Under the pieces are notes generated by a model. That model saw only the letters and a program-made list of their open reading frames with translations, was not told where the DNA came from and made no database searches. From positions 7,331-71,330 of the forward strand of contig CAZKCV010000004.1 of NCBI GenBank assembly GCA_964551605.1: DNA of 64,000 bases. The letters run 5' to 3'. Position 1 is the first letter of the stretch; every line of letters begins with the position of its first letter. The position numbers and the translations under genes are program-made. The stretch comes from an uncultured Gammaproteobacteria bacterium. GTDB lineage: Bacteria > Patescibacteriota > Microgenomatia > Daviesbacterales > UBA10151. Below, one piece after another: positions 17,031 to 63,560 of this stretch.

Positions 17031-17062
17031 CGTAGAATTTTTGCGGGAAATGTGCAAGAATA

Positions 17063-23389: not shown

Positions 23390-23393
23390 TTTA

Positions 23394-42657: not shown

Positions 42658-42664
42658 CTTCGTT

Positions 42665-42698: not shown

Positions 42699-42701
42699 TT
42701 G

Positions 42702-43001: not shown

Positions 43002-43018
43002 AGGTCGGTTTCGCCTCC

Positions 43019-43053
43019 AATGTAAAATGTAAAATGTAAAATTTAAAATTTAA
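43019..43053. repeat. Heptamer tandem repeat (AATGTAA)x3 (AATTTAA)x2
   Basis: Direct 7-nt periodicity in the intergenic region, followed by a family-B-like palindrome agcttgcgatctaaagatcttaa. Confidence 0.4.
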
Positions 43054-43105
43054 TTGTAAGCTGAGCTTGCGATCTAAAGATCTTAAATTGTACATTTGTA
43101 AATTG

Positions 43106-44257: not shown

Positions 44258-44262
44258 AAATT

Positions 44263-46469: not shown

Positions 46470-46619
46470 TGGTAGTCAATTCTACCAGAAACGACATTGG
46501 TAACCAAGTTGCTATTCGGCAGCACCTATGATAGATTTCTCCTATGGCTGAAAGAAGTTTTTCTGAGCATACTCTAATGGAGTATCGTAATCAAGGGCTT
46601 CATGAGGGCTGTAGGAGAA

Positions 46620-47174: not shown

Positions 47175-47196
47175 ATATATAAGGATACTAGCATAA

Positions 47197-47814: not shown

Positions 47815-47858
47815 CAACCTAATGTGCAAGAACTGGGATTATATGGTAAATTTAGGCA

Positions 47859-48806: not shown

Positions 48807-49492
48807 AAAATATTCCACAACATATTGCCATAATTATGGACGGAAACCGCCGTTGGGCCCGGTCAAAGGGTCTGCCGGATATTAGGGGCCACGAGAAGGG
48901 CACGGATATTCTGGAAGAGGTGGTGGAAGCTGCAGAGGGTTTAGGAGTAAAAGCCATCACAGTTTATGCTTTGTCTACAGAAAACATTAAAGAGCGGGCT
49001 AAAAGGGAGGTCTTGGGGCTGTTTAACCTGATCAGGAGGGGTTATCATATAAAGCTTAAGAAGATGATGCAAAGAGGGGTACGGATCAGTATTTTAGGGG
49101 AAATGCAGGGCCTGCCGGGAACCATAAAAAGACTGATTGAGCAGGTGAAAAAAACCTATATCAAAAATGAATCCATCAAGCTCAATATAGCCTTAAATTA
49201 TGGCGGGAAAAGAGAGCTGGTAGAGGCTGTAAAAGATCTGATTAAAGAAGGAATTGATGTAAGTAAATTAAATGAGAAAACAATAGAAAAATATCTTTAT
49301 ACTAATGGCCAGCCTGATCCGGAGCTGGTGATCAGAACCGGCGGCAGGTCCAGGTTATCTAACTTCCTGCTTTGGCAAACAGCTTATTCGGAATTTTATT
49401 TTACTAAAACATTATGGCCGGATTTTGATAAAAAGGAATTTAAAAAAGCTTTAGCCTGGTACCAGGAGCAGAAAAGAAATTTTGGTAAGTAG
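48803..49492 (+). CDS. uppS: Undecaprenyl diphosphate synthase (cis-prenyltransferase)
   Basis: HIAIIMDGNRRWA, E..YALSTEN and RTGG..RLS motifs; 229 aa. Confidence 0.85.
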   Translation: MKNIPQHIAIIMDGNRRWARSKGLPDIRGHEKGTDILEEVVEAAEGLGVKAITVYALSTENIKERAKREVLGLFNLIRRGYHIKLKKMMQRGVRISILGEMQGLPGTIKRLIEQVKKTYIKNESIKLNIALNYGGKRELVEAVKDLIKEGIDVSKLNEKTIEKYLYTNGQPDPELVIRTGGRSRLSNFLLWQTAYSEFYFTKTLWPDFDKKEFKKALAWYQEQKRNFGK

Positions 49493-49493
49493 C

Positions 49494-50294
49494 TTACTGA
49501 ACCTCTGACCAACGTTGAAGGGTATCGGCAAATAAATCCCTTAAAATCACCACATATTTCGGCTGGTGGACTATCTTTTCCGCAGCCACTGTATTATCAG
49601 TCAGGCTGCGGCAGAAAACTATTTTACCCGGGCTTAGACTGATTAAACTGCCATAAATAGTTAAAGTGTTGGCTACAGTGGAATTAGTAGTACAAGGATA
49701 ACCGGCAGTATAAATTTTATCTGAAGAAATGATCACCGAATATATTTGAGTCACAGTTTGAGTGATACTAACGTAGCCCTTAACGACAAAGACTATGCCG
49801 GAGCTTGCGTCTCCGAAATTACTGTTAAAGGTTAAATCTCCGTCTACAAAGATAACAGCAGCGGTTTTGGAGGGCCCACCTAGAGGGGAATTAATATCTA
49901 CATTTCCATTAACTAATACAATGTCATAACTGTTTAATAGGGACCTTAAAGTGCCTTGGTTGGCGGTGGCAGTTGATGTTTTAGCGGCTTTAGATTGGGT
50001 GTAATAGAGTGATTTTAGATCTTCATAAGTAGGGATTTTATAGGAGACAAAAGCAGCTTTTAAGTCAATCACGCAATTACCGGTGGTATTGCTGAATTTA
50101 GTAGAAACTGTCGGAGCACTAATTAAGCCGCCGGCCCGGGGATTGGTGGATTGGGTTGGGCAGGCATTTTGGGCATAAACGGTTGGTAGTATAAATAAAG
50201 CTACGACAATCAAATAAGCTGCCAAAATAACTGTACCCTGTAACCTAAGACCTTTAGGTCGCAAGCTTCGCTTATACCCTGTACCCTTTATCAT
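49494..50294 (-). CDS. Secreted/membrane-anchored hypothetical protein
   Basis: N-terminal hydrophobic segment after the family-B-encoded KRSLRPKGLRL; Thr/Ser/Asn-rich body. Confidence 0.4.
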   Translation of the reverse strand: MIKGTGYKRSLRPKGLRLQGTVILAAYLIVVALFILPTVYAQNACPTQSTNPRAGGLISAPTVSTKFSNTTGNCVIDLKAAFVSYKIPTYEDLKSLYYTQSKAAKTSTATANQGTLRSLLNSYDIVLVNGNVDINSPLGGPSKTAAVIFVDGDLTFNSNFGDASSGIVFVVKGYVSITQTVTQIYSVIISSDKIYTAGYPCTTNSTVANTLTIYGSLISLSPGKIVFCRSLTDNTVAAEKIVHQPKYVVILRDLFADTLQRWSEVQ

Positions 50295-51898
50295 TATGGT
50301 CCTCCCGGAGCCTGGATAGCTTTATTGGAGTGGACATCACCGCCCTCTGTTTGTACCCAAGGGGTGATGCAGGCCCTGAGGTTACAAGTTTGGGTTTCTC
50401 TCAAACCCCTGGTGCCGTCTGCTTTCAGGCACTGCAGCCCGCCGTAGGCCGGAACCGGACTAATGCAATTTCTGGTTTTGAAGCCAGGCCCGCAGGTTTC
50501 AGTACACATAGAATTCCAAACCGGCCCGTCCGGAAAGTCCCAGCCGCCATCAACAGGGCAACGCGGAATGTTACAAGTCACAGTCTGGGAAGAAGGGCCG
50601 GAACAGGGGGCGCCGTTGTTTGAAGGCGGAGTGCAGGTTCTGGTCCTGGTGGTTGTATCGGAACCGTCCCCGCAGGCCGGACAGGCACTCCAGGGGCTCC
50701 AGGCAGACCAGACACCATCCGTAGGACACAGCGGGAGTTTGATAATAGATACTGCGCTATGCCAGCCAAAATTGCCGTTAAACCAGTATGTGCTCCAGTT
50801 GGAGGAAGCATCATAGCCGAATAAACGGACGTAATAAGTATGGTCGGGTTGAATAGTCAGGGGGCCGGAAACTCCTGAGGCGCCATTAAAGCCGATAGGG
50901 GCATCCGTGTAAGTAGCGCCCGCAGGAACTCCTTTATTATAAAAAGTGGCAAAGTTAGGGTCTTCGCTGATATCCACCCAGTTGATTTGGCGTGCCGGAT
51001 TGGAGGTGGGGAAATAGATCCTGGCCAGGACAGAATTAGTGGCATTTGAAGTTAAGCAGGTGCCATAGTTAGTCAGAGTGTAATCATACTGGATATTCGG
51101 CGCCGGCATTTGGTATCTAAACCCGGAGGCGCAGGTATTGGCAAGCTCTGTTTCTACACTTTGGTTGTTCCAGTTAGTAGTCCTTTGTATAAGGCTATAT
51201 TTAGTGCCAATGGTATAGTAAGGGTTATTAAAGGCAATACTTTGGCTTGAGTATCCAGTTGACCAATTCCGGGTACATAATCCTGAGGATCCCCATCGGG
51301 TATCACAGACTGTCCAGTCCCAGTTGTTCCAGTTATCATGAGCCTTGACATAGAAGTTAGTTACTGTCCAGGGATAAACCCAATCATAAAGATTGATTGT
51401 GCAACGGTTATCCCACCAGTTCATCCAGCAGTACCCGCTGCTGGACCAGATATAGGCTTTATTCCAAGTGTAAGCGCCGCATTGGGGAGGGGCCGGAGGA
51501 GGCTGCGGAGGGTTATTCAGGGTAATATTAATGGAGGAACAACTACCGGTGTTGCCGGCGGCATTAGGCGAGACAATAGTGGCGGTTATATGATGAGGAG
51601 GAGTACCGGTAGATTGTCCGGTTGTATTCCAAGTTACACTGGGCTTGATAGCAGGTACAGTGTCCCCCGGGGCGGGCCAAATCCTGGTATTATCAACTAA
51701 AATAGCGGTTACTCCTTGAGTATTAGTGGTATCCACCGTAATAATAATTGATTCACCGATAGTGGCACTTGTTTTGGCAGTGATATTACAGGTGGGGGTA
51801 CTAAAGTCAGTATTCCAGTCAGCCAGGGCCGGGGAGATAAAGTATAGAGTATAAAGTATAAAGTATAGTGGGAAATAAAGCAGCAGGCGGCAGGGCAT
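50294..51898 (-). CDS. Secreted Trp/Cys-rich protein with two thrombospondin type-1-like repeats
   Basis: Signal-peptide-like N-terminus; WSAWSPWSACPACGDGSDTTTRTRTC and a second CxxTCGPG..R.C repeat; GC-rich relative to its surroundings. Confidence 0.5.
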   Translation of the reverse strand: MPCRLLLYFPLYFILYTLYFISPALADWNTDFSTPTCNITAKTSATIGESIIITVDTTNTQGVTAILVDNTRIWPAPGDTVPAIKPSVTWNTTGQSTGTPPHHITATIVSPNAAGNTGSCSSINITLNNPPQPPPAPPQCGAYTWNKAYIWSSSGYCWMNWWDNRCTINLYDWVYPWTVTNFYVKAHDNWNNWDWTVCDTRWGSSGLCTRNWSTGYSSQSIAFNNPYYTIGTKYSLIQRTTNWNNQSVETELANTCASGFRYQMPAPNIQYDYTLTNYGTCLTSNATNSVLARIYFPTSNPARQINWVDISEDPNFATFYNKGVPAGATYTDAPIGFNGASGVSGPLTIQPDHTYYVRLFGYDASSNWSTYWFNGNFGWHSAVSIIKLPLCPTDGVWSAWSPWSACPACGDGSDTTTRTRTCTPPSNNGAPCSGPSSQTVTCNIPRCPVDGGWDFPDGPVWNSMCTETCGPGFKTRNCISPVPAYGGLQCLKADGTRGLRETQTCNLRACITPWVQTEGGDVHSNKAIQAPGGP

Positions 51899-51958
51899 GA
51901 CTTATTATTGGCATATTAGAAAATGTTTTGCAAGGCGACAAGGTGGTATAATAAATTT

Positions 51959-52255
51959 ATGACACAATCACAAAAACGTCTGGAAAAAATCAAAACCAAA
52001 ATCCTTCCCATACTCAAACAGGCAGGAGTTAAAAGAAGCAGCCTGTTTGGTTCTTATGTCAGGGGAGAGGAAACAAAAGATAGTGATATTGATATTTTAG
52101 TAGAACTTCCTAAAGGAAAAAGTCTGTTTGATTTTGTAGACTTACAATTAAAATTAGAGGAAATGTTAAACAGGAAGGTTGATTTGGTGGAATACTCCAC
52201 AATTAAACCCCGCCTCAAACCTTATATTTTGGATAACCAGCTGCAGATCCTATGA
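51959..52255 (+). CDS. Nucleotidyltransferase antitoxin (MNT family)
   Basis: GSYVRGEETKDSDIDILV minimal nucleotidyltransferase motif. Confidence 0.65.
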   Translation: MTQSQKRLEKIKTKILPILKQAGVKRSSLFGSYVRGEETKDSDIDILVELPKGKSLFDFVDLQLKLEEMLNRKVDLVEYSTIKPRLKPYILDNQLQIL

Positions 52256-52608
52256 AAAAGCGGGATATTGGTGTTTTTCTTGAGGATATTTTAGAGAGCA
52301 TTGACAGGATAGAAGAATACACCAAAGATATCCCGGAAGAAGGATTTTACAGTACAGTTTCACTCCAAGATGCAGTCATCAGACGCTTTGAGATTATCGG
52401 AGAGGCAGTTAAACATATTCCCCAGAAAGTGAAGGACAAATACTCAGAGGTTCCATGGAAAGAAATCTCAGGCACCAGAGATATATTAATTCATGAATAT
52501 TTTGGAGTAAATTTAGAAAGAATCTGGAAAACCATCCAAAAAGATGTCCTGCCCTTTAAAAAGCAACTTCAACAGATGCTCCGCGATATTGATGAACAGG
52601 CTTCGTAA
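52252..52608 (+). CDS. HepT-like (DUF86) toxin
   Basis: R-x4-HxY-like RDILIHEYF motif; overlaps the MNT gene by 4 nt. Confidence 0.65.
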   Translation: MKKRDIGVFLEDILESIDRIEEYTKDIPEEGFYSTVSLQDAVIRRFEIIGEAVKHIPQKVKDKYSEVPWKEISGTRDILIHEYFGVNLERIWKTIQKDVLPFKKQLQQMLRDIDEQAS

Positions 52609-52777
52609 TTAATCTGTTAAGCTACATTTTGATCTATATTATATTTGGATCTATTTTCAGGATGGCAGATGCGATAGTGGGGAAGTGGTATAATTAGATT
52701 TGATTGACAAAGTTGCTTTTTCATGCATATAGTGGTACTATAGGATCATAAACTTTAGCTTTGAGCAGAGGCTAACT

Positions 52778-54370
52778 ATGAATACCATTGAAATGGATGG
52801 GGTAAAGGTTGAGAATCCATCAAGCTTAAATCCGTCCGACGGGCAACCGCCTGATTCCTCCGTGGTGTCACAACATCATCGACGGTCTCACCCTTGGGCT
52901 AAGAGACTGATACGGTGGGGTTTAGGGCTACTGACAGTGGCAGCCCCGGCAGCAGATACCGGTGTCAATATCTCTAAAACTGCAGCACAAGAATTTTCCC
53001 AGCCGCAGCCAGCCCCAACCCTGGAACTAAAGGCCTCCCCTCACGGCTCTATTGCTGAAGACATAGAAGCTGTTAAATCCCTGCAATATTCCAAGCCAGC
53101 CGAGCCTGCTTCTCAGGTTAAGATAGAAGCTTCAGGCTCCTTGACTGATACATTGAAAGCGCCATTGGTAGTGAGCAGGGAGTGGGTAGAAAGGAACCCC
53201 CAAAATATAGTGGCAGAAGTAGATGTAACGGATAATAACGGCGATTTAACTAAGCAGTTTACAGTGCTTGGTAGTAGTGTTCCCTATGAAACACATTTAG
53301 ACGGAAATGTTTTTACTGAGCGCAGAGCCCTGACTAAAATCCCCATGGGAAATGTTCAATCGCTTGGTGTGACTACAGACGGACAGACTTTAATAGCAGG
53401 CGGGACAGTAGCAAGAGACAATAATGCTGCTGGGATGGTTTTCCTGTCTTCTGACCAGGGGCAAACTTGGGTAGACAAGTCTTCAAAGTTCAATAATCTG
53501 GAAGGATTTACCAATCAGGTAAGGACTGCCGGGAATACTTTTATGGCAAATAATGCTAGATTTGAAGCTGGTTCTAATCAATTCCTTTATGACGTGGTAA
53601 ACGGGGATATAGTGAATGTGCGGGATATTACCTATCAAGACCAAAATGGTAACCCTGTGGCAGTAGGTTATGCAGGGGCTATGGGTAAGATGTCAGTGGA
53701 TAATGGTATTGCCACCATAGTTACGAATGGCTCTAATTTACTGGAGGATGGCTTGCTGGTATTAAGAGTAGATACTAATGCCGGATCTGGTACTGTACAA
53801 CACATCACACAAGTGAGGGTTGGTAATACATTGACTAACTTGGGCTACCTTTACGGTAAAGCTTTTTATACGGATCCAGCTGGTGACCCTCATGTTAAGG
53901 CTTTTAATTTTACGAGAAGGATAGTTTTTGATATAAATCTGAGAACGCTGAACGCTACAGAAACCAATGTGGCGGGCGTATTAAATGGTAAAGGTATCAA
54001 AGACTACCAGCTCAATACCTTTTATGCAAATGATCTCCGCGTTGATATAGATGCCCAACGTAATATTAGAACTCGTGTTGCAGGGGCTTACAGTACTACC
54101 AATGGTGACGCGCGGGCAGCCGTGGTAACTTTGGAAACAGGAGATGGGTTTAGCGATTTATTCCCAGCAACAAGATCTATTATAGGTGAAGGTGGCATGC
54201 AATTAAAACGGATCAATGGTCAACTGGTGGAGGACTTTACAATTATAGGAAGAGGTAAGGCTATCCTGCTTCCGGACGGGCAACTATTATTTACAGATGG
54301 CGGTTTTCCGGGCCAAATTACGGCCAGAGCTTATTTACCTCTAGTCACTAAATCTTCCTCGGGTTGGTAG
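52778..54370 (+). CDS. Secreted hypothetical protein (Thr/Gly/Asn-rich)
   Basis: N-terminal TM/signal segment LGLLTVAAPAA; 530 aa. Confidence 0.4.
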   Translation: MNTIEMDGVKVENPSSLNPSDGQPPDSSVVSQHHRRSHPWAKRLIRWGLGLLTVAAPAADTGVNISKTAAQEFSQPQPAPTLELKASPHGSIAEDIEAVKSLQYSKPAEPASQVKIEASGSLTDTLKAPLVVSREWVERNPQNIVAEVDVTDNNGDLTKQFTVLGSSVPYETHLDGNVFTERRALTKIPMGNVQSLGVTTDGQTLIAGGTVARDNNAAGMVFLSSDQGQTWVDKSSKFNNLEGFTNQVRTAGNTFMANNARFEAGSNQFLYDVVNGDIVNVRDITYQDQNGNPVAVGYAGAMGKMSVDNGIATIVTNGSNLLEDGLLVLRVDTNAGSGTVQHITQVRVGNTLTNLGYLYGKAFYTDPAGDPHVKAFNFTRRIVFDINLRTLNATETNVAGVLNGKGIKDYQLNTFYANDLRVDIDAQRNIRTRVAGAYSTTNGDARAAVVTLETGDGFSDLFPATRSIIGEGGMQLKRINGQLVEDFTIIGRGKAILLPDGQLLFTDGGFPGQITARAYLPLVTKSSSGW

Positions 54371-56470
54371 TTATTTAACTGGTTCTCTTGGGATGCTCCG
54401 TTCGCCGCCGGTCCAATTGATATAGCTGTAAGTTCCCCACCTACGATTACCTAAGGCATTGTAAAGCGTTACGGAAAATTGAGGAGGCGTAGATGGTAAA
54501 CTGACCCCCCTGTCTCGCGCAAGTGCCGTTATACCAATGGATTGATTCTCATGAGCTATTGTCCTGGTAAAATTATGCCAACCATCCTTTAAATAGATGT
54601 AGTACGTGTCAAAGCAGAAATTATAACCATTGCAGCCTGACTGGTTAGAACCAGTTCCTGGTGTCGGTCCTCCGGCATAAGAAGTATTTTTGTTGGCATA
54701 GATAAGTACAAACCCATTTGTATTGTTATTGTAGTTTGAACTTCGCATTAGCTCTGAGAGGGTATTGTTATTAGGGGCGGGGGGTGAAACCTGGCTGGTA
54801 AAGGCGGCTCCGACTAGTTTTATATCGCTGCCATTTGTATTATCTACATTGGGGATGATGGTAATAGCATTATAGTAATTACTACCTCCTTGATTTGAGT
54901 CGGACCTTAAACCGCTAATAGTATAAGTCCCTGCTTCTTGTGAGCCGGTGGCCGAGTCAGGTTTGATTTGTAGGGTTCCTGGAGTTGGAGCGGTACAGGT
55001 AACGGATTTGGGAGAACCGGGGAGAAGAGTATGGGTGCCGGAACCAATGTTAATGCCATAGGCATAGATATTATGGGATCTGCCGTCCCTGAGGGAGTTG
55101 GCAGGAATAGTAAAGGAAAAGCCATGATTGGGGTTGCCGCCGCACTGGTTAGCTACTGCTGTTTCCCTGGGCAGATTGGCAGTGGCAGAGCCTAAGCCTG
55201 TGCCAGTGCCGGCCGGGCCATCCGCATAGAAATCTACCCTTAGGGAAGCATTGTAATTATCCCCGTCACAGGTCCAGCCGGTGATGGCCGCGCAAGTCCC
55301 GCCTTCCAGATTCCCCACCGGATTATAGGTGGCTTCCCCGTAAATCTGCAGGTTGGCCATATCTCCGGTTGCTGCATTGTAGCCGGAGGTGGGAGGATAA
55401 CCCGGGGGAGAATAATAAAAAGTATTAAAGTAGGCCCGGCCAGAAGTATAGGCATTCCGGGTATTGATGCCGTTGATAAAGACATTGCCCTTGCCGCAGA
55501 AAGGATTATCCAGCCTGACCTGGGAGCCGGAGGTATTAGTGCCATACAGGTCAATCTGGCGGGGTTCATTGGGCCGGTCGCAGTTATATCTGCCTTGTTC
55601 CCAGTAACCGCCTTCTTCAGAGCCTCTGTTTTGATCCAGATGGGATTGTTGGATGGAGAGGAAATGTTGCCCGGGTTGCAATTGATGATTGGGGATTGTG
55701 ACGGTTAAGTTGCCTCCGTCAAAAGTCCAATTGGGTCCGGTGTATTTTGAGGGCACGTCACCTTTGTAGTATTGGTCGGCTTGCACTGTATTATAGGAGG
55801 CGGGAGCAGGGGTCCAGTCAAAGGTAGACTCGCCAAAGATCACACCGCTGCCATATGGCACGCCCCACTGTGACCATTCATCCCGGAGACCCTGTTGATT
55901 ATCGGATAACATCTGATATGCCCTGGTCCATTCGGAGGCCCGGGGGCAGGGCCGCTGGGGATCATTAATGATCATTCTTCTTAAGAATAAAGCTTCAATG
56001 GAGTTCTGGTCCACTCCGCAAAGGCTGGCCAAATCATTGGCTAACTCACCACCGATAAAAATCCGTTCCTCCCTGGCTAACATCGGCCCGGTAGGAGAAA
56101 TAACCGTGGTCCGGCCTTCATAGCCAAACGGGCTGGATTGTCCTTCGGGAGAAGTAGCCACTTGAGTAGAAGCAGTTGGTTCTCCGGCAAATACAGCCAC
56201 AGAAACTATCCCACCGGTGTTGCCTCCGGCATGGCCCAGTTTAAAGTCGGTTAACCTGATCCGGTTGACTTTGACCACTCCCGAAGGGGCGGCAAAGCTT
56301 TGGCCGGCCAGGTGGTTATCGGTCCAGCCTGCCTCAGTAGTATTGCTGCCGGCCGGACCATTGCCCGGGAAAATTTCAATTTCAGCGGCTGAGGCCGGGG
56401 AGGGAAGAATAAGTAATATAAGTAATAAGAATAAACATGTAATGCTGAATAAAGCTTTAAGTTTGCTCAT
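54371..56470 (-). CDS. Large secreted hypothetical protein (Gly/Asn/Thr/Pro-rich)
   Basis: Signal peptide MSKLKALFSITCLFLLLILLILPSPASA; 699 aa. Confidence 0.4.
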   Translation of the reverse strand: MSKLKALFSITCLFLLLILLILPSPASAAEIEIFPGNGPAGSNTTEAGWTDNHLAGQSFAAPSGVVKVNRIRLTDFKLGHAGGNTGGIVSVAVFAGEPTASTQVATSPEGQSSPFGYEGRTTVISPTGPMLAREERIFIGGELANDLASLCGVDQNSIEALFLRRMIINDPQRPCPRASEWTRAYQMLSDNQQGLRDEWSQWGVPYGSGVIFGESTFDWTPAPASYNTVQADQYYKGDVPSKYTGPNWTFDGGNLTVTIPNHQLQPGQHFLSIQQSHLDQNRGSEEGGYWEQGRYNCDRPNEPRQIDLYGTNTSGSQVRLDNPFCGKGNVFINGINTRNAYTSGRAYFNTFYYSPPGYPPTSGYNAATGDMANLQIYGEATYNPVGNLEGGTCAAITGWTCDGDNYNASLRVDFYADGPAGTGTGLGSATANLPRETAVANQCGGNPNHGFSFTIPANSLRDGRSHNIYAYGINIGSGTHTLLPGSPKSVTCTAPTPGTLQIKPDSATGSQEAGTYTISGLRSDSNQGGSNYYNAITIIPNVDNTNGSDIKLVGAAFTSQVSPPAPNNNTLSELMRSSNYNNNTNGFVLIYANKNTSYAGGPTPGTGSNQSGCNGYNFCFDTYYIYLKDGWHNFTRTIAHENQSIGITALARDRGVSLPSTPPQFSVTLYNALGNRRWGTYSYINWTGGERSIPREPVK

Positions 56471-56473
56471 AGT

Positions 56474-56911
56474 TTATTTAATCTCCGGATCCAGAATCAC
56501 TATCAGGTTTGTTTCCAGAAGGCCTTCTGTATTTGCGGCAGCAGAAATTGATACAGAACTGCCTATTTGGGCAGAAGAGGAAGCCGGTACTGTGCCAATG
56601 GAATTGGGGCCGAAACGCTGCTGTTTTAAGATAGCGGCGCCGGTAGCAATCCGGATGTCTATTTCCTGGTCATCACTTACTTTTACGGTTAATACATTGT
56701 CTTCAATCCGGCTGATTTCACCTTCCACCAGTTCAGAGGTGGGTAGCTCTGTATCTTCCGGTGCAGCAGTTTCTTCAGTAATGTTACTTTTCTGTTGGGT
56801 TAAAAAGTAAGTAGCAGCCAAACCCAGACCTGAAAGCAGGATGGCAGTAATAATAATTAAGCTGATCCGGTTTAAGAAGATATTTTTTAATAGATTAAGT
56901 TTAGAATCCAT
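56474..56911 (-). CDS. Membrane-anchored hypothetical protein
   Basis: Start placed at the internal Met MDSKLN..; one TM helix. The track's TTG start at 57001 was rejected. Confidence 0.35.
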   Translation of the reverse strand: MDSKLNLLKNIFLNRISLIIITAILLSGLGLAATYFLTQQKSNITEETAAPEDTELPTSELVEGEISRIEDNVLTVKVSDDQEIDIRIATGAAILKQQRFGPNSIGTVPASSSAQIGSSVSISAAANTEGLLETNLIVILDPEIK

Positions 56912-57000
56912 AAATTTATTATGGCTTTTTTTATGCAGGATATGCAAGTGTCTCTTGGCAGTTTTTTTCACCTTAACTTTATAATACAATATCTGCCGCA

Positions 57001-57165
57001 ATGGTCAAGTTGAATGCAAAGCAATTAAGGAAGGGTAAAGGGGAAAGCGTAAAGGGTGAAGTAAGAAAGAACAACATCTATATTATCCTGGATAATGTTT
57101 TAGATACCTATAATATTGGTTCTATCTTCAGGCTGGCAGATGCAACTTTGAAGATTTTACATTGA
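57001..57165 (+). pseudogene. Duplicated 5' fragment of the TrmH-family methyltransferase gene (48 codons + 6 novel codons)
   Basis: 57001-57143 matches 59764-59906. A 53-bp core is identical; a 42-nt G-rich heptad block differs. Confidence 0.5.
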
Positions 57166-57219
57166 CATATTGGTTAAGAATGAGGTATCTTGCAAATATT
57201 CCTGCCTGATAGAGGTTGA

Positions 57220-58551
57220 ATGACAAAACAAGAGATTTCTATTTCGGATCATCAAGAGCCTAATTTATTGAGATTACGCGGTGGAGTTTTTCTTGTTGAA
57301 GGATCTAAACGGGCAGCTCTATATGATACAAACAGCGGTAATGTCTATTCGCTTAACCAAGAAGCAACTCAAACAGTAAAAGGAGAAGCTAATTATCCCG
57401 AATTTTGGTCAAAACTTGCTTCTATGCAACTGGTTGTTGCCAGACAAGATTCCGCAACTGAGTTGATCATTTCAGAAGTTGAAATTCCGAAACCAACCTT
57501 GCAATTTGCATGGTTAGAACTTACTGAATTGTGTAATGAACGTTGTCTTCACTGCTATGGCAGTTTTTCTCCAGATAAGCAAGATAAAATTGCTAGATCT
57601 CTTGATCATACAGAATGGAAAGATACTATACAATCGTTGGCAGAAAATGGCTGTAAACAAATTCAATTTATCGGCGGAGAACCTTTTAGGTACCGCGGTG
57701 AGACAAAAACACAAACTGTTTTAGATTTGGCTGACTTTGCTAAAGAGCAGGATTTTAGTTTAGTTGAGATATTTACTAATGGAACGTTGATCTCGGCAGA
57801 AATTGTTAAAAGAATAAAAGATCTTGAAGTTTCAGTTGCTCTTTCGCTCTATTCATCAAACGCTGCGATTCATGACAATATAACACAAACCCCTGGAAGT
57901 TACAGAAAAACTCTTAGGGCAATTAATATGTTGAGAGAAGCAGATGTTTCGCTGAGAGCAGCTATTATTGTAATGAAACAAAATGAAGATACTATTGAAC
58001 AAACATTAGAGATGGCTCAAAATTTAGGCTTGAACGTTAGAGTCCCTGATGCAGTGCGCCCCAGTGGGAGGGCACAAGAAACAGATATAATTCCAAGTGT
58101 CGAAATGCTCATAAAATATGGGCTTATCACAAAACCGAATTTCTCAACCGATCCAGTTAGCTTTCAGCGAAACCACCTGTATCACAGTTGTTTAGCCGGT
58201 AAGGTTGCAATTACTAGGGATAGACAAGTCATCCCTTGTATTTTCTCAAGAGATAACACATTAGGTAATCTTAGAGATCAAAAATTGGCAGATGTACTTG
58301 AGTCTCCAGTTCTAAAAGAAACTTGGGAATTAACCAAAGATAAAGTTTTGGTTTGTAGAGACTGCGAATACCGTTACGCTTGTTCTGACTGCCGTCCGCT
58401 TGCTGAAGGTTCAAATTGCGGAAAAGGCTATTCAAGCGCTCCCTTTCCAAGATGTACCTATAATCCGTATACTGGTGAATGGGGATCCGGTGTGTGGAGG
58501 ATGAACAGTCAGGGAGAAATTGTTTATGAAGAATTGCCAATACAAAAGTAA
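57220..58551 (+). CDS. Radical SAM / SPASM-domain peptide-modifying enzyme with an N-terminal RRE-like extension
   Basis: ELCNERCLHCYG CX3CX2C motif; a C-terminal Cys-rich twitch/SPASM-like region (C..CRDCEYRYACSDCRP..CGKG..CTY); ~90 aa precede the rSAM core. Confidence 0.8.
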   Translation: MTKQEISISDHQEPNLLRLRGGVFLVEGSKRAALYDTNSGNVYSLNQEATQTVKGEANYPEFWSKLASMQLVVARQDSATELIISEVEIPKPTLQFAWLELTELCNERCLHCYGSFSPDKQDKIARSLDHTEWKDTIQSLAENGCKQIQFIGGEPFRYRGETKTQTVLDLADFAKEQDFSLVEIFTNGTLISAEIVKRIKDLEVSVALSLYSSNAAIHDNITQTPGSYRKTLRAINMLREADVSLRAAIIVMKQNEDTIEQTLEMAQNLGLNVRVPDAVRPSGRAQETDIIPSVEMLIKYGLITKPNFSTDPVSFQRNHLYHSCLAGKVAITRDRQVIPCIFSRDNTLGNLRDQKLADVLESPVLKETWELTKDKVLVCRDCEYRYACSDCRPLAEGSNCGKGYSSAPFPRCTYNPYTGEWGSGVWRMNSQGEIVYEELPIQK

Positions 58552-58572
58552 AAAGAAGGGAGGTGAAGAAAT

Positions 58573-58782
58573 ATAAAAGAAAATACCGAAATTTTAGCTC
58601 AACAAGCGGCTAGTAGGCAGGTTGGTTCTGGACCCACAATTGAATTGGTAACACCTAAAGCTGGAATGGGCATGGAACCAAGTGGAGTTTGTCCTCCAGA
58701 TTGTGCTCCAGGTGCAATTTGTCCTCCAAATTGCTTACCGAATTGTCAGCCGTCGTGTCCGCCGACAATATTTCCAAGATAG
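58573..58782 (+). CDS. Cys-rich candidate RiPP precursor peptide (core ..VCPPDCAPGAICPPNCLPNCQPSCPPTIFPR)
   Basis: Frame open from 58567 to TAG 58780-58782. A strong SD GGGAGGTGA lies directly after the rSAM stop. The codon at the canonical start position is ATA (58573); alternative starts are TTG 58645 and ATG 58666. Confidence 0.4.
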   Translation: MKENTEILAQQAASRQVGSGPTIELVTPKAGMGMEPSGVCPPDCAPGAICPPNCLPNCQPSCPPTIFPR

Positions 58783-58817
58783 CCTGAATCTTCCAAGCAG
58801 CCTAAACTACCGCCGAA

Positions 58818-59729
58818 CTAAGGCGGAATATGTAGCGTATTGGGGGTGGGGGCAATCAGGAATTGTGGCCAGGTTTTAGGGTATAGAGTCATGATAATTT
58901 TGCCGAAAACAAAGGCGAAATCGTGAGGGTATTTGCGTGGTTCTAATACAGAATCTACTTGGTCGAGATTATTTTCTTTTTCGACCTTTAGTAGGTATCC
59001 CATTGTATTGGCAGCAAAGATATCAAAGTTTCGTTTATGAGTCGGCCAAAAAATCATACTTGCCTGATATTCACAACAGAAAGCAAAGAGCTCGGTTATT
59101 CCTTCAACGGCGGGAAACCGAATTGGCAATTTTGCAAATTTTTCGCTCTTGGAGTGAGATGAATTTTTTACTTCGGAGTAGAGCTGTTTAACGGTTTTCA
59201 ACAGCAGGAGATTTTCCTTCTTATTTGAGTAATACCAAAGTTTGTGTTGGTGCCAGTAAGCGTGTCCGAATTCGTGGACAATAGTAGCCATGTAACTCTC
59301 GCGGGTGGTATAGGGGTTGTTTTTACGTCTTTTCATTTTCTTTTGGAGTTCAGTAAAAGGTATTAATAATCCTCCGGAGATAAAAGAAGTTATCAACTCA
59401 TTAGTTTTTAGTTTTGAGAGAAGTAACCGAGTTAGTTTCGGTAGTTTTAGACCTGCTCTCCACCAGTATTGATAATCATCGGAGATTTTAAGTTTATGGA
59501 GAATTTTGTAGGCAAAATATTGTTTCAGGCTGCATTTAATAGAGGTAAGCTTGGGAAATTTTGCCTGTGACCAAAGATAAATATTTTCGCAGTCATAACT
59601 GACAACAATTACCTTTTCAATTAACTTTTTGTTCTTAAACACAAAATTTAGTTTGGGATGCCAAACTGAATTTATTCCTTCTTCAATTGCCTCGAAGTCT
59701 TCTTTTACCGCTTTGTAGTTTTCAAACAT
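58818..59729 (-). CDS. Putative zinc metallopeptidase (HExxH)
   Basis: ATIVHEFGHAYWHQH motif; 303 aa; convergent with the precursor ORF. Confidence 0.5.
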   Translation of the reverse strand: MFENYKAVKEDFEAIEEGINSVWHPKLNFVFKNKKLIEKVIVVSYDCENIYLWSQAKFPKLTSIKCSLKQYFAYKILHKLKISDDYQYWWRAGLKLPKLTRLLLSKLKTNELITSFISGGLLIPFTELQKKMKRRKNNPYTTRESYMATIVHEFGHAYWHQHKLWYYSNKKENLLLLKTVKQLYSEVKNSSHSKSEKFAKLPIRFPAVEGITELFAFCCEYQASMIFWPTHKRNFDIFAANTMGYLLKVEKENNLDQVDSVLEPRKYPHDFAFVFGKIIMTLYPKTWPQFLIAPTPNTLHIPP

Positions 59730-59763
59730 AACGCAATTTTACCATTAATGATAAAATCATGGC

Positions 59764-60297
59764 ATGGTAAAACTTAATGCAAAGCAATTGAGAAAGGGTA
59801 CAGGGTACAGGGTACAGGGTACAGTTAAGCGCAATGAGATCTATATTGTTTTGGATAATGTTTTAGATACCTATAATATTGGTTCTATCTTCAGGCTGGC
59901 AGATGCGGTGGCAGCCAAAAAGATTTACCTTTGCGGGGGAACAGAGACTCCGCCCAATCACCGGATTAAGAAAGCTTCCATTAATACCACCGAAGTAGTG
60001 GAGTGGGAGTACTTCGAAACAGCCCTGGAAGCAGTTTCAAGGGTAAAGCGTGAAGCGAAAAGGGTAAAGATAATAGCGATAGAACAGAGCCCTAAATCAA
60101 TCCAATATAATACTTTTGAGTATAAATTGCCCATATGTTTGGTGGTAGGGCATGAAAGTAACGGGGTAAGCAGGGAAGTTTTGGAAATTTCTGATGCCAT
60201 TGTTGAAATTCCCATGTTCGGGGTTAATATTTCTTTAAATGTTGTGGTTTCTTTAGGGATAGTATTGTATGAAGTTATTAAGAAGAGTGATAATTAA
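59764..60297 (+). CDS. TrmH/SpoU-family RNA 2'-O-methyltransferase
   Basis: SpoU motifs NIGSIFR...GTE and a C-terminal LNV..S; contains the (GGGTACA)x4 in-frame repeat. Confidence 0.7.
   Translation: MVKLNAKQLRKGTGYRVQGTVKRNEIYIVLDNVLDTYNIGSIFRLADAVAAKKIYLCGGTETPPNHRIKKASINTTEVVEWEYFETALEAVSRVKREAKRVKIIAIEQSPKSIQYNTFEYKLPICLVVGHESNGVSREVLEISDAIVEIPMFGVNISLNVVVSLGIVLYEVIKKSDN
59796..59824. repeat. (GGGTACA)x4 heptamer tandem repeat (family A variant; G4 motif) in frame in the trmH-like CDS
   Basis: Perfect 7-nt repeats. The duplicated fragment at 57033-57061 carries GGGTAAAGGGGAAAGCGTAAAGGGTGAAG at the same place. Confidence 0.6.
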
Positions 60298-60301
60298 AAT
60301 T

Positions 60302-60955
60302 ATGTCGGGAGATTCTAGGATAAGTATTATGCAAGCTTCAGGTAGACTAGGGCCATACTTAAGCAGTATCCGCAAGAGTGCGCAAGAGGCGGTTTCCAAG
60401 ATTGAAGCAAAGATCCCCTTAACTGGTGTTGATGTTGTTATCTGTGATAATCCTAGAGCTACAATTCCACATTTGGGTATCGGTGGTCAAACTGTGACAT
60501 CTAATCTGGTGATAGTATCGCTAAACCCAAGCTCTAAATTCTTAATAAACAAAATTGAAGAGGCGATACTGAGAACCTTGGCCCACGAGCTAAACCATTG
60601 CGCAAGATGGGAATGCGTAGGATACGGAAAGACTCTCCTGGAGGCGATGATTTCAGAAGGATTAGCAGATCATTTTGATGAAGAGATTTCAAAGGGAGAA
60701 CCGCAATCCTGGAGTAAATCTCTAAGTCTCAGGCAGATAGAACGATTTTTAGGGCTGGCTAAGGAAGATTTACATAACAAGAACTATAATCATACGGATT
60801 GGTTTTTTGGGTCAAAAACCAAAAAAATCCCAAAATGGACAGGTTACAGCCTGGGATATTATCTGGTAGAGGAGTATCTGAAGAGGAATTCCGGTAAGCA
60901 GCCGTCCGACATTTACAATTTAACTGCATTACAGTTTATTAAATCAGATGATTGA
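60302..60955 (+). CDS. Putative Zn-dependent protease (DUF2268-like, HExxH)
   Basis: LAHELNHCARW motif; start placed at the internal Met after the trmH stop. Confidence 0.45.
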   Translation: MSGDSRISIMQASGRLGPYLSSIRKSAQEAVSKIEAKIPLTGVDVVICDNPRATIPHLGIGGQTVTSNLVIVSLNPSSKFLINKIEEAILRTLAHELNHCARWECVGYGKTLLEAMISEGLADHFDEEISKGEPQSWSKSLSLRQIERFLGLAKEDLHNKNYNHTDWFFGSKTKKIPKWTGYSLGYYLVEEYLKRNSGKQPSDIYNLTALQFIKSDD

Positions 60956-61199
60956 GATAGTTTTTGAATCACATTCAACAAGCATGGATAATGAGAATCA
61001 TCTTTCATCAGGATGGAATGATGTTGAACTCTCGCCATTAGGAATACAACAAGCAAAGGATTTAGGAAAACGAAGAAAAGATGAAAAATTTGATGCAATT
61101 TTTTGTTCAGATCTTCAAAGATCTTATAAAACAGCTGAGATTGCTTTTGGCAATAAATTTCCAATAATTCGTGATGAAAGATTAAGGGACTGCAGTTAG
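60948..61199 (+). CDS. Histidine-phosphatase (PGAM-like) family fragment, probably truncated
   Basis: Only 83 aa; N-terminal IVFESHSTS..GW.D..LS..G..QA..LG resembles the RHG region, but the motif is degenerate and the C-terminal half is absent. Confidence 0.3.
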   Translation: MIEIVFESHSTSMDNENHLSSGWNDVELSPLGIQQAKDLGKRRKDEKFDAIFCSDLQRSYKTAEIAFGNKFPIIRDERLRDCS

Positions 61200-61258
61200 A
61201 AGAAATTATTGCTGCTTCTTGGAAGTGGCAGCCCGGGTGGGAATATAGGCTGGAGTCA

Positions 61259-61852
61259 TTATAGTCTTATCTTTAATTCCTTGAGCTTCCTTGTAAGATC
61301 TAATGCAGATGTAAAAAGTATTGTTTTAAAGTCTAATCTTTCGGCAACTTCGATATTTTTTATATAATCATCAATGAATAGGCACTCTTGCGGTTTTAGT
61401 TGAAGTTTTTTTAAGACAAGCAGGAAAATTTCTTTATTTGGTTTTGTTAATCCTACCTGGAAAGAGTAAACAACATGTTTAAAAAGTTTATGGTATGAGT
61501 ATTTTTTTTCACAGTATTCTACCCATTCTTTACCATGATTTGATAGCAAAATGAGGGTATAATCCTCTTTTTTAAGTTTTTCTATAATTTCCCGTGTTCC
61601 TTTTATTTCTGTAAAGTTTTTTCTGGCTGCATTTTTCAGTTGGTCAACAGGAATATCCCATGAGTTTTCTTTAATAACAGATTTCCAGTAGTTATCTTCT
61701 GATATTTGTCCAGTCACAAACTTCTCATAATATTCGTTATAAAAATATTCCTCTGAAACAGTAGCACTCAATTCTTTTTCAAAATATTTATGACTTCCTA
61801 AAATCCCTTCCAAATACACATTAGAGAGATCAAATATTATTGTGGTAATCAT
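61259..61852 (-). CDS. HAD-superfamily hydrolase
   Basis: IIFDLSNV motif I-like, LLSN motif II and FIDD motif IV-like; 197 aa. Confidence 0.55.
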   Translation of the reverse strand: MITTIIFDLSNVYLEGILGSHKYFEKELSATVSEEYFYNEYYEKFVTGQISEDNYWKSVIKENSWDIPVDQLKNAARKNFTEIKGTREIIEKLKKEDYTLILLSNHGKEWVEYCEKKYSYHKLFKHVVYSFQVGLTKPNKEIFLLVLKKLQLKPQECLFIDDYIKNIEVAERLDFKTILFTSALDLTRKLKELKIRL

Positions 61853-61955
61853 TTTAAATTTGCGCCAATATGTTTAGATTACCAGAAAGACAAACTATAT
61901 TCATACTTCAACAGGTAGTATCAATACAGCCGTTGCAGTGTGGTAGTATAAATTT

Positions 61956-62402
61956 ATGGTAAATTCTATTATCTTTGATTGGAAAAGGACTTTGTATGAT
62001 CCGGATCGGAAGGTTCTAATTGATGGGGCCTTGGAACTTTTGGATTTGATTAAAGCTAAAAATATCCCTATGGTCTTAATCGGTAAAGGGGCGGAAGATA
62101 TGCAGCGGGAGGTAAAACGCCTGGGGGTAGATAAGTATTTCAGGCAGATTGTATTTGCTGAGGGAGATAAAGACCCGCAAGTTTTTATGCCATTTGTCTT
62201 AAAAGCTGATCCTGAAAGAACACTTTTTATTGGAGATCGGGTCAGATCTGAGCTAGAAATTGGTAAAAAACTGGGGGCTGTAACTGTCTGGGTCAGGCAG
62301 GGTAAATTTGCCTCAGAGACGCCTCAAAATCACGATCAGAAACCAGATTATGCCGTTTCATCATTAAGAGATTGCTTGAGTGTAATTTCAGGTCTGAATT
62401 AG
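61956..62402 (+). CDS. HAD-superfamily hydrolase (small)
   Basis: IIFDWKRTL N-terminus and FIGDR..E C-terminal motif; 148 aa. Confidence 0.5.
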   Translation: MVNSIIFDWKRTLYDPDRKVLIDGALELLDLIKAKNIPMVLIGKGAEDMQREVKRLGVDKYFRQIVFAEGDKDPQVFMPFVLKADPERTLFIGDRVRSELEIGKKLGAVTVWVRQGKFASETPQNHDQKPDYAVSSLRDCLSVISGLN

Positions 62403-63560
62403 GGTGTAGCCGATCTTTTTGTGGCTTTCAATAATGTAATTATTAGCCTGCATAAAGGGATGTTTCCGCAGGCGGTAGATAAGCGCATCCAGGGCCCAGT
62501 CTGTAGCACCTTCTCCGGCATCTGCCGGATCCCAAACTGCGGTAAAGATTTCATCTTTTGATACAGTCCGACCGATGTTATTTCTTAATAGTTTGAATAA
62601 CCTGGCTTCCTTAACTGGTAACTTAACCGGCATATTGGTTTTGATAAAGTCCCCTAACAGGGGAGTAAAAAGCTCAAATTTTACACCCCCGGGGTGTAAT
62701 CGCATTTTTTCCACCCCGGGGGTGAACTGTCTAACCATGCCGACTCCCAAAAGATAATCGTCAATTTCCCCAAAGTTATAACCCTGAGCTTGCCGAAGGG
62801 CTATCTTTTGCAGGGTCTTGCGCTGGTGGTAATCTAAATAATCAATTAGCTCTTTTATTTGCATTTTGACAAACCTATCCAAGAGCAGGTTTTGTTTAGG
62901 AGAAGCCAGAAGGAGATGCAAAAGCTGGTTATGGCCGCCGGAAAGCTCGATCAATTCATTCAAGGTTTGGGTAGAGCTCGTAGGTTCGGGATCAAGGTTG
63001 AGGAGTTTTTTTAGATCGCTTGCCGAGTAAGGCTTAAAATACAAATATTTGGAATAAAAAGTAAGGTTCCCGCCGCTGACAGCCTCCGGTGCCAAGTCAT
63101 GCAAAGGCTTAGTGGAAGTAAAAATGAGCACGATCCTACCCGATTGGATTGCGGTTAAGCTTTGCAAATTAGATAGAAAATTGGCATCAAACGCCTTCGC
63201 TAATTGATCAAACCGGCTAAAGATTATTACCACTTTTTCATGCTTGGCAGCTAAATTTTTTATGATTTCTTTAGTTTCGATAAAAACCTGCTCGTCTGAT
63301 TTGCCGTCAGGATTACCTTTTAAGTCCCTTAAAAACATTCTGTAAAACTCATGTTGGTTTAAAGTAGGCAAAGAGTAAAGGTCGACATGGACAAAATAGG
63401 CAAAGCTTTGGCAAGCCAGGTATTTTAGGAAATAAGATACTCCCACTCCCGGCATGGAAACGGTGACAAAAGACACTCCGGCATCAATCAAGGCTTTAAA
63501 TTCTTTGAGTTTGTCTGAGGCAAAGTTGGGTCCCAGTTCAGCTTCTTTAAAGTTATACAT
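62388..63560 (-). CDS. ATPase-like N-domain + OmpR/PhoB-type winged-helix transcriptional regulator
   Basis: C-terminal LFKLLRNNIGRTVSKDEIFTAVWD...ALDALIYRLRK matches the trans_reg_C wHTH; the N-terminus has a degenerate P-loop/Walker B (VVIIFSRFD). Confidence 0.5.
   Translation of the reverse strand: MYNFKEAELGPNFASDKLKEFKALIDAGVSFVTVSMPGVGVSYFLKYLACQSFAYFVHVDLYSLPTLNQHEFYRMFLRDLKGNPDGKSDEQVFIETKEIIKNLAAKHEKVVIIFSRFDQLAKAFDANFLSNLQSLTAIQSGRIVLIFTSTKPLHDLAPEAVSGGNLTFYSKYLYFKPYSASDLKKLLNLDPEPTSSTQTLNELIELSGGHNQLLHLLLASPKQNLLLDRFVKMQIKELIDYLDYHQRKTLQKIALRQAQGYNFGEIDDYLLGVGMVRQFTPGVEKMRLHPGGVKFELFTPLLGDFIKTNMPVKLPVKEARLFKLLRNNIGRTVSKDEIFTAVWDPADAGEGATDWALDALIYRLRKHPFMQANNYIIESHKKIGYTLIQT

Follow-up and report, generated by a model that had tools for sequence, protein, structure and literature searches.

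The 64,000-nt stretch analyzed here (hereafter the window) belongs to a metagenome-assembled contig (CAZKCV010000004.1, assembly GCA_964551605.1) that its trmH orthologues assign to Candidatus Daviesbacteria (Microgenomates, Candidate Phyla Radiation); all coordinates are window positions, and L-numbers (L001, L093, etc.) label the related loci, contigs, and unitigs that we compared with it. In the window, an intact gene of the SpoU family, trmH, is preceded by a second copy of its own 5' end. The two copies form an ungapped direct repeat of 143 nt (57001-57143 and 59764-59906), each opening with an ATG and starting 2763 nt apart, and between them lies a cassette of ~2.6 kb with three genes: a radical S-adenosylmethionine (rSAM)/SPASM gene, a Cys-rich precursor open reading frame (ORF), and a gene for an HExxH protein (Table 1). 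Very probably, the left copy is what recombination has left of a second functional trmH allele at an insertion hotspot.

Table 1. Features at and around trmH in the window
Feature	Position	Strand	Remarks
Period-7 arrays, ~30 nt each	13129-13161, 17062-17092, 25067-25096, 32246-32277, 34968-35003, 43015-43055, 51836-51871, 57031-57061, 59795-59824, 60039-60069
Third, degenerate trmH motif-1 core	52626-52673	+	18 nt past the stop of the MNT/HepT pair (51923-52608)
TATAAT -10 box of the left (relic) trmH copy	56980-56985	+	15 nt before the ATG; predicted function
Left repeat copy, probable 5' relic of a second trmH allele	57001-57143	+	48 TrmH codons
Left-copy heptad array	57031-57061	+	Imperfect, 4.4 units; AAGGGTAAAGGGGAAAGCGTAAAGGGTGAAG
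53-nt identical tract	57091-57143 = 59854-59906	+	Encodes LDNVLDTYNIGSIFRLADA (SpoU motif 1)
Decayed trmH tail, relic-cassette junction, and rSAM upstream region	57144-57219	+	Junction common to L092 and L103
rSAM/SPASM peptide-maturase-like gene	57220-58551	+	443 aa; Pfam Radical_SAM 1.4e-20, SPASM 2.1e-6
Cys/Pro-rich precursor-like ORF	58567-58782	+	…GSGPTIELVTP… leader, CPPxC core; kept in L012, L083, and L091
HExxH protein gene	58818-59729	-	303 aa; invariant H152, E153, H156, and E213
Extended -10 of the HExxH gene	59735-59745	-	ATGGTAAAATT; last conserved cassette bases; motif TATTTTACCAT conserved
Extended -10 of intact trmH	59749-59757	+	TGATAAAAT; 6 nt before the ATG
Intact trmH (SpoU family)	59764-60297	+	177 aa; first 143 nt are the right repeat copy; Pfam SpoU_methylase 4.4e-32
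Right-copy heptad array	59795-59824	+	Perfect (AGGGTAC)x4.3, i.e., (G3N4)x4; predicted mRNA G-quadruplex
Second heptamer array inside trmH	60039-60069	+	SRVKREAKRVK; site also variable in orthologues
Accessory genes 3' of trmH	60269-62402		DUF2268 protease-like gene, 83-aa histidine-phosphatase-like ORF, two HAD hydrolases

Two trmH starts at one native locus

How alike are the two copies? They agree at 118 of 143 positions (25 mismatches, 83%), and alignment confirmed both the duplication and the 53-nt identical stretch that a preliminary description of the window had reported. That description confined the differences to an internal block; the heptad blocks differ as it stated, but mismatches are also present in nt 1-30 (6 mismatches) and nt 62-90 (~12). 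When the 25 mismatches are permuted over the 143 nt, a stretch of 53 or more identical positions turns up with a frequency of 7.5e-5. Among 84 orthologous genes, 41-47 positions of the core match the window, never above 47/53, so ordinary motif conservation is insufficient to account for an identity of 53/53. The tract points to a crossover, a heteroduplex, or a (later) gene conversion.

Past its TrmH codons, the left ORF continues through six unrelated codons to a TGA at 57163-57165. It reaches 18.7 bits against the Pfam SpoU profile, covering only profile positions 2-25, where the cut-off is 29.7 bits; it is therefore not a family member and is the pseudogene fragment it had been taken for. 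The right copy opens a protein with a complete SpoU_methylase domain (111.6 bits against the same cut-off), a member of the family, which reached no NCBIfam equivalog cut-off and whose substrate may be tRNA G18 or rRNA. Exact look-ups of trmH and of the left ORF returned no record, and an Rfam scan of 56000-61000 (E<=1) gave no RNA element in the repeat or its junctions, its lone sub-threshold match lying elsewhere.

Each copy comes with a promoter-like sequence of its own. The TATAAT reported upstream of the left copy is present, though one base to the left of the 56981-56986 first assigned to it, and trmH 5' fragments in relatives likewise retain a TAnAAT box 6-15 nt before the ATG. Because the -10 box of intact trmH stands so close to its start codon, a leaderless mRNA is predicted. 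Across the window, 9 of 57 gene starts (16%) have a TAnAAT box, often in the form TGnTAnAAT, whose end lies 4-10 nt ahead of the ATG, compared with 2% of all ATGs, examples being 59764, 59729 (minus strand), 22058, and 32630, which suggests that leaderless transcripts are common in this genome. The relic TATAAT is also a plausible candidate promoter for the cassette, since the stretch from it to the rSAM start contains no terminator-like site, though the cassette has a promoter-like TTGACA-18-TATCTT of its own (57162-57191, from a promoter scan).

Relatives reveal what the locus looks like without the cassette. In the closest ones with context (L093, L094, and L095; trmH 82-86% identical), a single uninterrupted trmH lies 38-76 nt from a divergent small gene, which upholds the earlier proposal that the repeats bracket an inserted cassette and represent a recombination scar; relatives carrying both copies and no cassette were sought and not found. 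The two genes preceding the left copy (54371-56470 and 56474-57001) also lie upstream of trmH in L010 and L038, and the regulator gene at 62388-63560 lies downstream of trmH in 21 loci, including these two. With upstream and downstream neighbors thus shared, the window represents the native locus with extra DNA inside. Nor is the 3' side constant: the accessory genes sit between trmH and the convergent regulator, which abuts trmH in several relatives, and the distance from trmH to the regulator ranges from 0 to 6435 nt over the 21 loci (2.1 kb in the window). No trmH 3' fragment was found downstream of the gene in the window. The 83-aa ORF among the accessory genes (60948-61199) corresponds to only the N-terminal third of the histidine-phosphatase/phosphoglycerate-mutase family and is probably a truncated gene.

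A further trace of trmH lies upstream of the repeat. The degenerate third core aligns locally to trmH nt +99..+144 with a score that was reached in 0 of 1000 shuffles. The MNT and HepT genes in front of it were assigned by Pfam/NCBIfam, and L004 has the intact form of the arrangement, MNT-HepT directly before trmH. A degenerate core behind this pair thus implies at least two nested events in the window.

Did the differences between fragment and gene accumulate in a dead copy or in working genes? Outside the heptad block, the window copies differ at 11 codons, of which 7 are synonymous and 4 conservative (K/R, I/V, N/E); within codons 2-10, all five differences are synonymous (5/5). We pooled every trmH fragment found beside an intact gene together with one tsaD case, that is, ten fragment/gene pairs in ten loci, and counted 96 synonymous and 36 nonsynonymous codon differences (27%). 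This excess of synonymous changes is highly significant both against the ~57% nonsynonymous changes expected of a neutral in-place copy (P = 4e-12) and against 72% (P = 2e-26). Most of the fragments are not themselves under selection, because the 3' fragments have no start and several 5' fragments contain stops or indels; the differences therefore arose while the sequences were parts of working genes, and the left copy reads as a piece of another functional trmH allele rather than as a decayed in-place copy. On this codon evidence, the relics must be pieces of other functional trmH alleles, joined to the resident gene by recombination between lineages.

The cassette, gene fragments in relatives, and heptad arrays

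Homologous cassettes occur in at least five genomic contexts. The cassette lies inside a trmH 5' duplication in the window and L092; directly after a full trmH in L012; beside a membrane protein gene in L085, L086, L088, and L089; beside an XRE-like gene in L084 and L087; beside pilus genes in L090 and L091; beside unrelated genes, with no trmH locus, in L103; and inside a tsaD duplication in L083 (61 nt, 97% identical, made up of the -10 box and the first 16 codons). In L092 a complete relic (promoter, open frame, ~160 nt) meets the region upstream of the rSAM gene in the junction that the window also has. Here the trmH-derived stretch continues ~17 nt past the equivalent of 57143, so the homology does not break off at 57144/59907 in the way first described; the tail has decayed in the window or been deleted or scrambled. 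At the same relic-rSAM junction, L103 has a ~40-nt remnant of an L092-type trmH tail (1/2000 shuffles against the L092 relic); a match of this remnant to the window's own trmH was rejected as not significant (236/500 shuffles). Judged from these arrangements, the cassette is mobile, and the trmH piece belongs to its left end. In L084, extra DNA separates two precursor-like copies (1259-1366 and 3478-3585; 84% identical) at a spacing of 2.2 kb.

Two Logan unitigs from two other sequencing runs (L001 and L002) start 30 nt inside the core and continue into the cassette, and L001 also spans the junction from the cassette to the right copy, stopping within the (GGGTACA)n array. On the right, six other cassette loci lose homology to the window at the extended -10 of the HExxH gene, which places the cassette boundary at ~59745/6. 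No inverted repeats pair the cassette ends, no recombinase or transposase Pfam domain was found in the window at 41.5-64 kb or in the relatives' cargo, and no tyrosine-recombinase motif was found in six frames over the whole window. A search of IMG/VR for viral or plasmid-like contigs yielded no relative of the cassette.

How widespread are such gene fragments? Partial trmH copies were present in 9 of 80 species-representative genomes, as 5' fragments upstream of the gene (L004, L031, L036, L042, and L051) or 3' fragments downstream of it (L006, L022, L025, L031, L051, and L055). Toxin-antitoxin pairs made up most of the bracketed cargo. Between 5' fragment and trmH it was MNT/HEPN, MNT/HepT, Phd/ParE, an AbiEii pair, or Fic, and in four of these five genomes 5-20 nt separated it from the trmH ATG; cargo bracketed by 3' fragments consisted of miscellaneous other genes. 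Of the 43 repeats of 55 nt or more in the 1.0 Mb surveyed, 12 involve trmH, a gene that accounts for 4% of that sequence. Searching with the peptide of the relic returned 24 clusters of short TrmH N-terminal ORFs; further loci have a trmH fragment, PIN/MazE, and trmH (L096) or a trmH fragment, genes for an acyl-CoA dehydrogenase and MaoC, and trmH (L098-100). Two "short TrmH" matches (L097 and L101) were rejected as duplications, being frameshifted single genes. Cargo in the related events measures 0.7-4 kb, typically one to four genes.

The inner ends of the fragments vary among events. Duplications start with the ATG or the -10 box or slightly ahead of it and are 28 to ~240 nt long across related events; 5' fragments end at trmH +28, +143, ~+150, +155, ~+160, ~+170, or ~+190, and 3' fragments begin between trmH codons 112 and 150. 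The identical stretches are placed differently in different genomes, and insertions of internal trmH pieces were not seen. L102 points to recombination within such repeats: in it, the sequence upstream of the L098 right copy and the 5' allele of that copy (100% over 202 nt) are joined to the tail of the L098 left copy and its junction, followed by the first 45 nt of the L098 cargo (with one SNP across the tail-cargo part) and then by unrelated genes. The stretch common to both L098 copies is too short for L102 to be a k = 141 assembly chimera, and its structure thus links one cargo junction to two different 5' alleles. L102 (1-1529) runs on into OmpA-like genes; it may have arisen by excision, by amplification, or through another rearrangement.

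Other direct repeats were noted as well. In the window, a repeat of ~125 nt (21886-22009 and 23393-23517; 79%) lies just past the stops of a DNA-ligase ORF and a 443-aa ORF, so that the 443-aa gene is enclosed in much the way that the cassette is by the trmH repeats. In L052, a 772-nt direct repeat with 100% identity (4482-5253 and 6157-6928) lies within two adjacent large ORFs upstream of trmH.

What does the cassette encode? Both maturase domains are present in one protein, next to a precursor with a leader and a Cys-rich core, which is the make-up of an rSAM/SPASM maturase cluster for ribosomally synthesized and post-translationally modified peptides (RiPPs). All 70 NCBIfam matches were below cut-off (70/70), so the cluster falls in no curated subfamily (sactipeptide, ranthipeptide, grasp-with-spasm, etc.); the best partial match of the rSAM cluster was TIGR04193, at 97 bits against a 175-bit cut-off. 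Four aligned precursor sequences share 16 invariant columns, including an ICxPNC…C.P.C motif. The precursor ORF of the window has no canonical start before TTG 58645, and no ATG, GTG, or TTG stands where the homologues begin (58552-58666). The homologous frame opens straight after TGA 58564-58566, with GGAGGTG just upstream whose GTG is one base out of frame; initiation at ATA/ATT, a frameshift, or a sequencing error is possible. The HExxH protein belongs to a family of 106 homologues, all from Microgenomates. It has no Pfam or NCBIfam model, and a sequence search of the PDB came back empty. An alignment-based AlphaFold2 (AF2) model had a predicted local distance difference test (pLDDT) score of 85, the single-sequence model being useless (pLDDT 37), and Foldseek found no fold match for it in the PDB (best E = 0.66). 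Kinship with the downstream DUF2268 protease was considered and rejected (BLASTP E = 0.57). The cassette includes no transporter.

The G-rich heptad block had been singled out as a hypervariable part of the duplication. Hypervariable it is, but it is not special to the duplication: it is an array of a genome-wide type, in a slot that varies in all orthologues. The window contains 10 period-7 arrays, compared with 0 in shuffles, and 0 of period 8. Seven of the 10 are in frame within six ORFs (trmH having two) and encode 9-13 codons, e.g., ETGYRQQVTGNS, LGERVKREGGS, and WESVKRKGERGKK. At trmH codons 11-21, the best periodicity is 7 in 37 of 50 orthologues, flanked by almost invariant codons, and the units that fill the slot come from mutually unrelated families (GGGNNNN, CAGNNNT, CGACTAC, GCCAAAA, and AACTTAA). 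The (G3N4)x4 form is found there in 13 of the 50 orthologues, its four G-runs kept while the loop bases vary. Folding of the right-copy RNA (ViennaRNA with quadruplex energies) placed a G-quadruplex in the minimum-energy fold (-22.6 vs. -18.5 kcal/mol); the left copy has lost one G-run. The relic of L004 ends at the heptad block. By these comparisons, the block is hypervariable independently of the duplication. In the literature searched, we found no report of heptanucleotide arrays or of the trmH-type insertion pattern in this bacterial group.

Further observations concern such arrays and their surroundings. The (GGGTACA)x4 sequence begins 31 nt into the probably leaderless trmH mRNA. Several trmH orthologues reach 201-244 aa through long inserts at the two heptamer slots (L038:6498-7232, L031:3081-3680, and L042:5284-5898), that of L038 having up to ~60 extra codons at the second slot. 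Relatives also have heptamer hairpins (L011:4104-4175 and 7094-7165; L016:1871-1953 and 13337-13419; L042:11419-11484), built, for example, as (AGTCGTC)x4, a loop, and inverse heptamers; they lie mostly in or near intergenic stretches and look terminator-like. On the minus strand of the window at 50294-51898, a gene for a secreted 534-aa protein includes an (ATAAAGT)n heptamer array that encodes the signal-peptide region; the protein has a thrombospondin type-1 repeat (Pfam TSP_1, 4.4e-9), an unusual feature for bacteria. The G+C content is raised (0.44-0.58) at 50294-51898 and 52800-56400. Upstream of the variable region, a mevalonate/isoprenoid cluster occupies 41587-49492 (GHMP kinase, thiolase, HMG-CoA synthase-like protein, HMG-CoA reductase, polyprenyl synthetase, and UPP synthase).

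Routes by which the cassette may have reached trmH

How could a piece of a foreign allele come to stand in front of an intact gene? We see about an even chance that the route was of the Campbell type (insertion-duplication), independent of an integrase and driven by homologous recombination in the SpoU motif-1 region. A circularized foreign segment would bring the cassette together with the promoter and the initial ~160 nt of a trmH gene, and a single crossover with the resident gene inside the conserved motif-1 coding stretch would yield promoter, 5' relic, cassette, promoter, and intact trmH, in that order, so that one complete gene is kept. The length of the repeat would be that of the trmH piece on the incoming DNA. 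A 3' piece would instead give intact gene, cargo, and relic, and an internal piece would destroy the gene; both 5' and 3' relics are indeed seen, as insertion-duplication predicts when the incoming piece holds a gene end. The tail at the illegitimate relic-cassette junction would never be refreshed by recombination and would decay, and recombination between the repeats could regenerate the circle. The circular intermediate is an inference on our part, as are the direction of transfer and the choice of the resident copy.

Several observations weigh against this route or against parts of it. Homologous recombination on a handle of 60-160 nt is inefficient in model bacteria. Neither an empty-site allele nor a circular form of the window's own cassette was found, and the hybrid proteins predicted for the empty site and the circle junction are absent from a protein collection in which short ORFs seldom appear. 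Together with its promoter, the intact right copy clusters with L093, the closest relative, and the 5' part of the left relic is nearest to the more distant genomes L021 and L030; the simplest Campbell picture expects the relic, which stands beside the native upstream genes, to be the resident allele, a point that argues weakly against it, the segments compared being 29-30 nt. In L036, L051, L031, and L096, fragment and gene have the same heptad type, indicating within-lineage events. In L012, finally, an intact trmH is followed after 7 nt (stop to start) by the rSAM, precursor, and HExxH genes, an arrangement that fits a two-step route equally well.

That two-step route is the alternative that survives best, although we consider it unlikely. 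A donor trmH and its cassette, arranged as in L012, would have been set beside the resident trmH; the upstream copy would then have been deleted beyond ~+160, and later gene conversion would account for the 53-nt identity. The gene order and orientation of L012 match those of relic and cassette in the window; in the window, L092, and L103 alike, the relic lies at the rSAM end of the cassette; the affinity of the right copy for L093 speaks for this route; and the synonymous excess fits it as well as it does the Campbell model. Yet the rSAM protein of L012 is only 44% identical to that of the window and represents a different cassette subtype, the 79 nt upstream of the rSAM gene do not significantly resemble the remainder of trmH (P = 0.19-0.94), and two full trmH copies flanking cargo were seen in 0 of 80 loci. 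Each lineage would also need an unexplained first insertion plus a deletion, as opposed to one Campbell step.

Quite unlikely, in our judgment, is site-specific integration, in which the cassette would be the remnant of, or be mobilized in trans by, an integrative element whose attachment (att) site overlaps the trmH 5' end, the element bringing a replacement promoter and 5' end and the 53 nt being the att core. The repeated use of trmH and the identical core beside diverged gene-end sequence would suit such an element, and the architecture resembles that of integrative elements in housekeeping gene ends, which do not alter the encoded protein and have direct repeats on either side (PMC4701971). 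No integrase, however, was found in the cassette, in the 20 kb around it, or in any relative's cargo; fragment inner ends and the positions of identical stretches vary among events; both ends of trmH are used, as is tsaD by the same cassette family; and the repeats exceed, by a factor of 2-10, the 12-54 bp reported for elements of this kind (PMC4701971).

Duplication in place strikes us as improbable. It would have copied the 143 nt at insertion, through widely staggered breaks or template switching during replication, and the left copy would have decayed except for a converted tract. The copies in L083, L036, L051, and L096 are close (84-97%) and of the same heptad type, and the start of duplications at or just before the ATG or -10 box is also compatible with it. 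Against it stand the mainly synonymous differences described above, the upstream promoter regions of the two window copies, which are unrelated, the right one resembling that of L093, and the lack of any known transposition mechanism that yields duplications of 60-240 nt and variable length. The target duplication offered in the preliminary description fails on similar grounds, the repeat being too long, the copies differing as functional alleles do, and terminal inverted repeats and a transposase being absent.

An assembly artefact, a mis-join of two strains at the 53-nt repeat that made neighbors of the left 5' part and the cassette, is very improbable: the window is a metagenome-assembled contig, the Logan unitigs break exactly at the repeat, and the join from the 56474-57001 gene through the left 5' part to the cassette is without independent confirmation, but two independent unitigs join the last 30 nt of the core to the cassette, so that a trmH piece does precede it, L092 from another metagenome has the complete relic and promoter before a related cassette, the 53-nt repeat is below ordinary read length, and the same architecture recurs in more than 12 unrelated assemblies. 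Two other candidates were rejected. A diversity-generating retroelement disagrees with mismatches that involve all bases in both directions, with a repeat at the gene's 5' end, and with the absence of a reverse-transcriptase domain from the ORFs of 41.5-64 kb. For an integron cassette, no recombinase was found, and the cargo-trmH gaps of 5-20 nt in relatives are too small for attC (no dedicated attC model was run).

Extended beyond the window, Campbell-type insertion leads to a tentative and, on balance, doubtful generalization: in Daviesbacteria and neighboring Microgenomates, accessory modules may spread without an element-encoded recombinase by means of a gene-end "handle" (trmH 5' or 3', tsaD 5') and a leaderless promoter, popping in and out by host homologous recombination and leaving xenologous relics and one intact gene. 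If true, gene flow in these small genomes would have a general route that perpetuates itself, open to toxin-antitoxin pairs, the RiPP-like cassette, and metabolic gene pairs. To our knowledge, little is known of how small Candidate Phyla Radiation genomes gain genes, and classical mobile elements look scarce there. The window locus and its relatives suggest a housekeeping gene that serves as a landing pad at both ends, cargo that arrives with a piece of the gene, and scars that are foreign functional alleles. Should this hold widely, gene-end relics would be a simple computational marker for horizontal acquisitions in uncultured lineages, and it would explain the movement of toxin-antitoxin pairs and of a lineage-specific peptide-modification cassette. 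Taken singly, the finding amounts to less: the repeats are a genuine scar of recombination and no footprint of a transposon.

Comparison with known systems

The cassette itself resembles known rSAM/SPASM RiPP clusters (sactipeptide, ranthipeptide, and grasp-with-spasm) in combining an rSAM/SPASM enzyme with a short ORF bearing a leader and Cys-rich part and a putative metallopeptidase. Unlike them, it reaches no curated family at cut-off, its HExxH partner is without Pfam model or PDB fold match, and it has no transporter. The heptad arrays have counterparts in the short tandemly repeated repetitive (STRR) heptanucleotide repeats of heterocystous cyanobacteria and in in-frame selfish repeats such as the Rickettsia palindromic elements. 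Tandem repeats are also reported for Borg elements (PMC9879509). With these the window arrays share short, scattered 7-nt-unit tracts, some in frame within genes, and fast turnover; they differ in being ~30 nt long (4.3 units), in adding 10-12 codons, and in filling the same orthologue slot with unrelated units.

Among insertion mechanisms, transposons make target-site duplications of 2-15 bp that are initially identical, fixed in length, and abut the element ends. The window repeat, at 143 nt and 83% identity and with related events of 28 to ~240 nt, does not agree with this.

Integrative elements that use gene ends come closest in architecture. SXT/R391 elements integrate in the 5' end of prfC, and e14 and phage 21 in the 3' end of icd. 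Integrative and conjugative elements (ICEs) of streptococci enter the 5' ends of ftsK, rbgA, and ebfC and are flanked by direct repeats of 12-54 bp (PMC4701971). Such ICEs, prophages, and satellites share with our loci the direct repeats of a gene end, the reconstituted target gene, the identical core beside diverged sequence, and the reuse of a conserved housekeeping gene; in the window, too, a second gene end with its own promoter keeps trmH intact. The att-like repeats with an identical core and an intact 177-aa TrmH are thus present, whereas a recombinase gene and a fixed crossover position are not. The loci further depart from such elements in having no excisionase, repeats of 60-240 nt, a variable inner boundary, the use of both ends of the gene and of another gene, and a cargo of 0.7-4 kb.

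Flexible genomic islands, such as tRNA-linked islands and the tycheposons of Prochlorococcus, offer a third comparison. There, as here, varied small cargo collects at one conserved anchor, and partial anchor copies mark successive insertions (three trmH 5' pieces in the window); the differences are an anchor that codes for protein and is used at both ends and the absence of a detected element-encoded recombinase. Campbell-type insertion-duplication, finally, is familiar chiefly from plasmids or from its use in the laboratory. The three structures it predicts—5' relic, cargo, and gene; gene, cargo, and 3' relic; and hybrid repeats—are all seen, and host homologous recombination suffices to make them. 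What would set our loci apart from the laboratory version, if the circle that we infer existed, is that they would represent a natural and recurrent way of gaining accessory genes in an uncultured lineage with small genomes.

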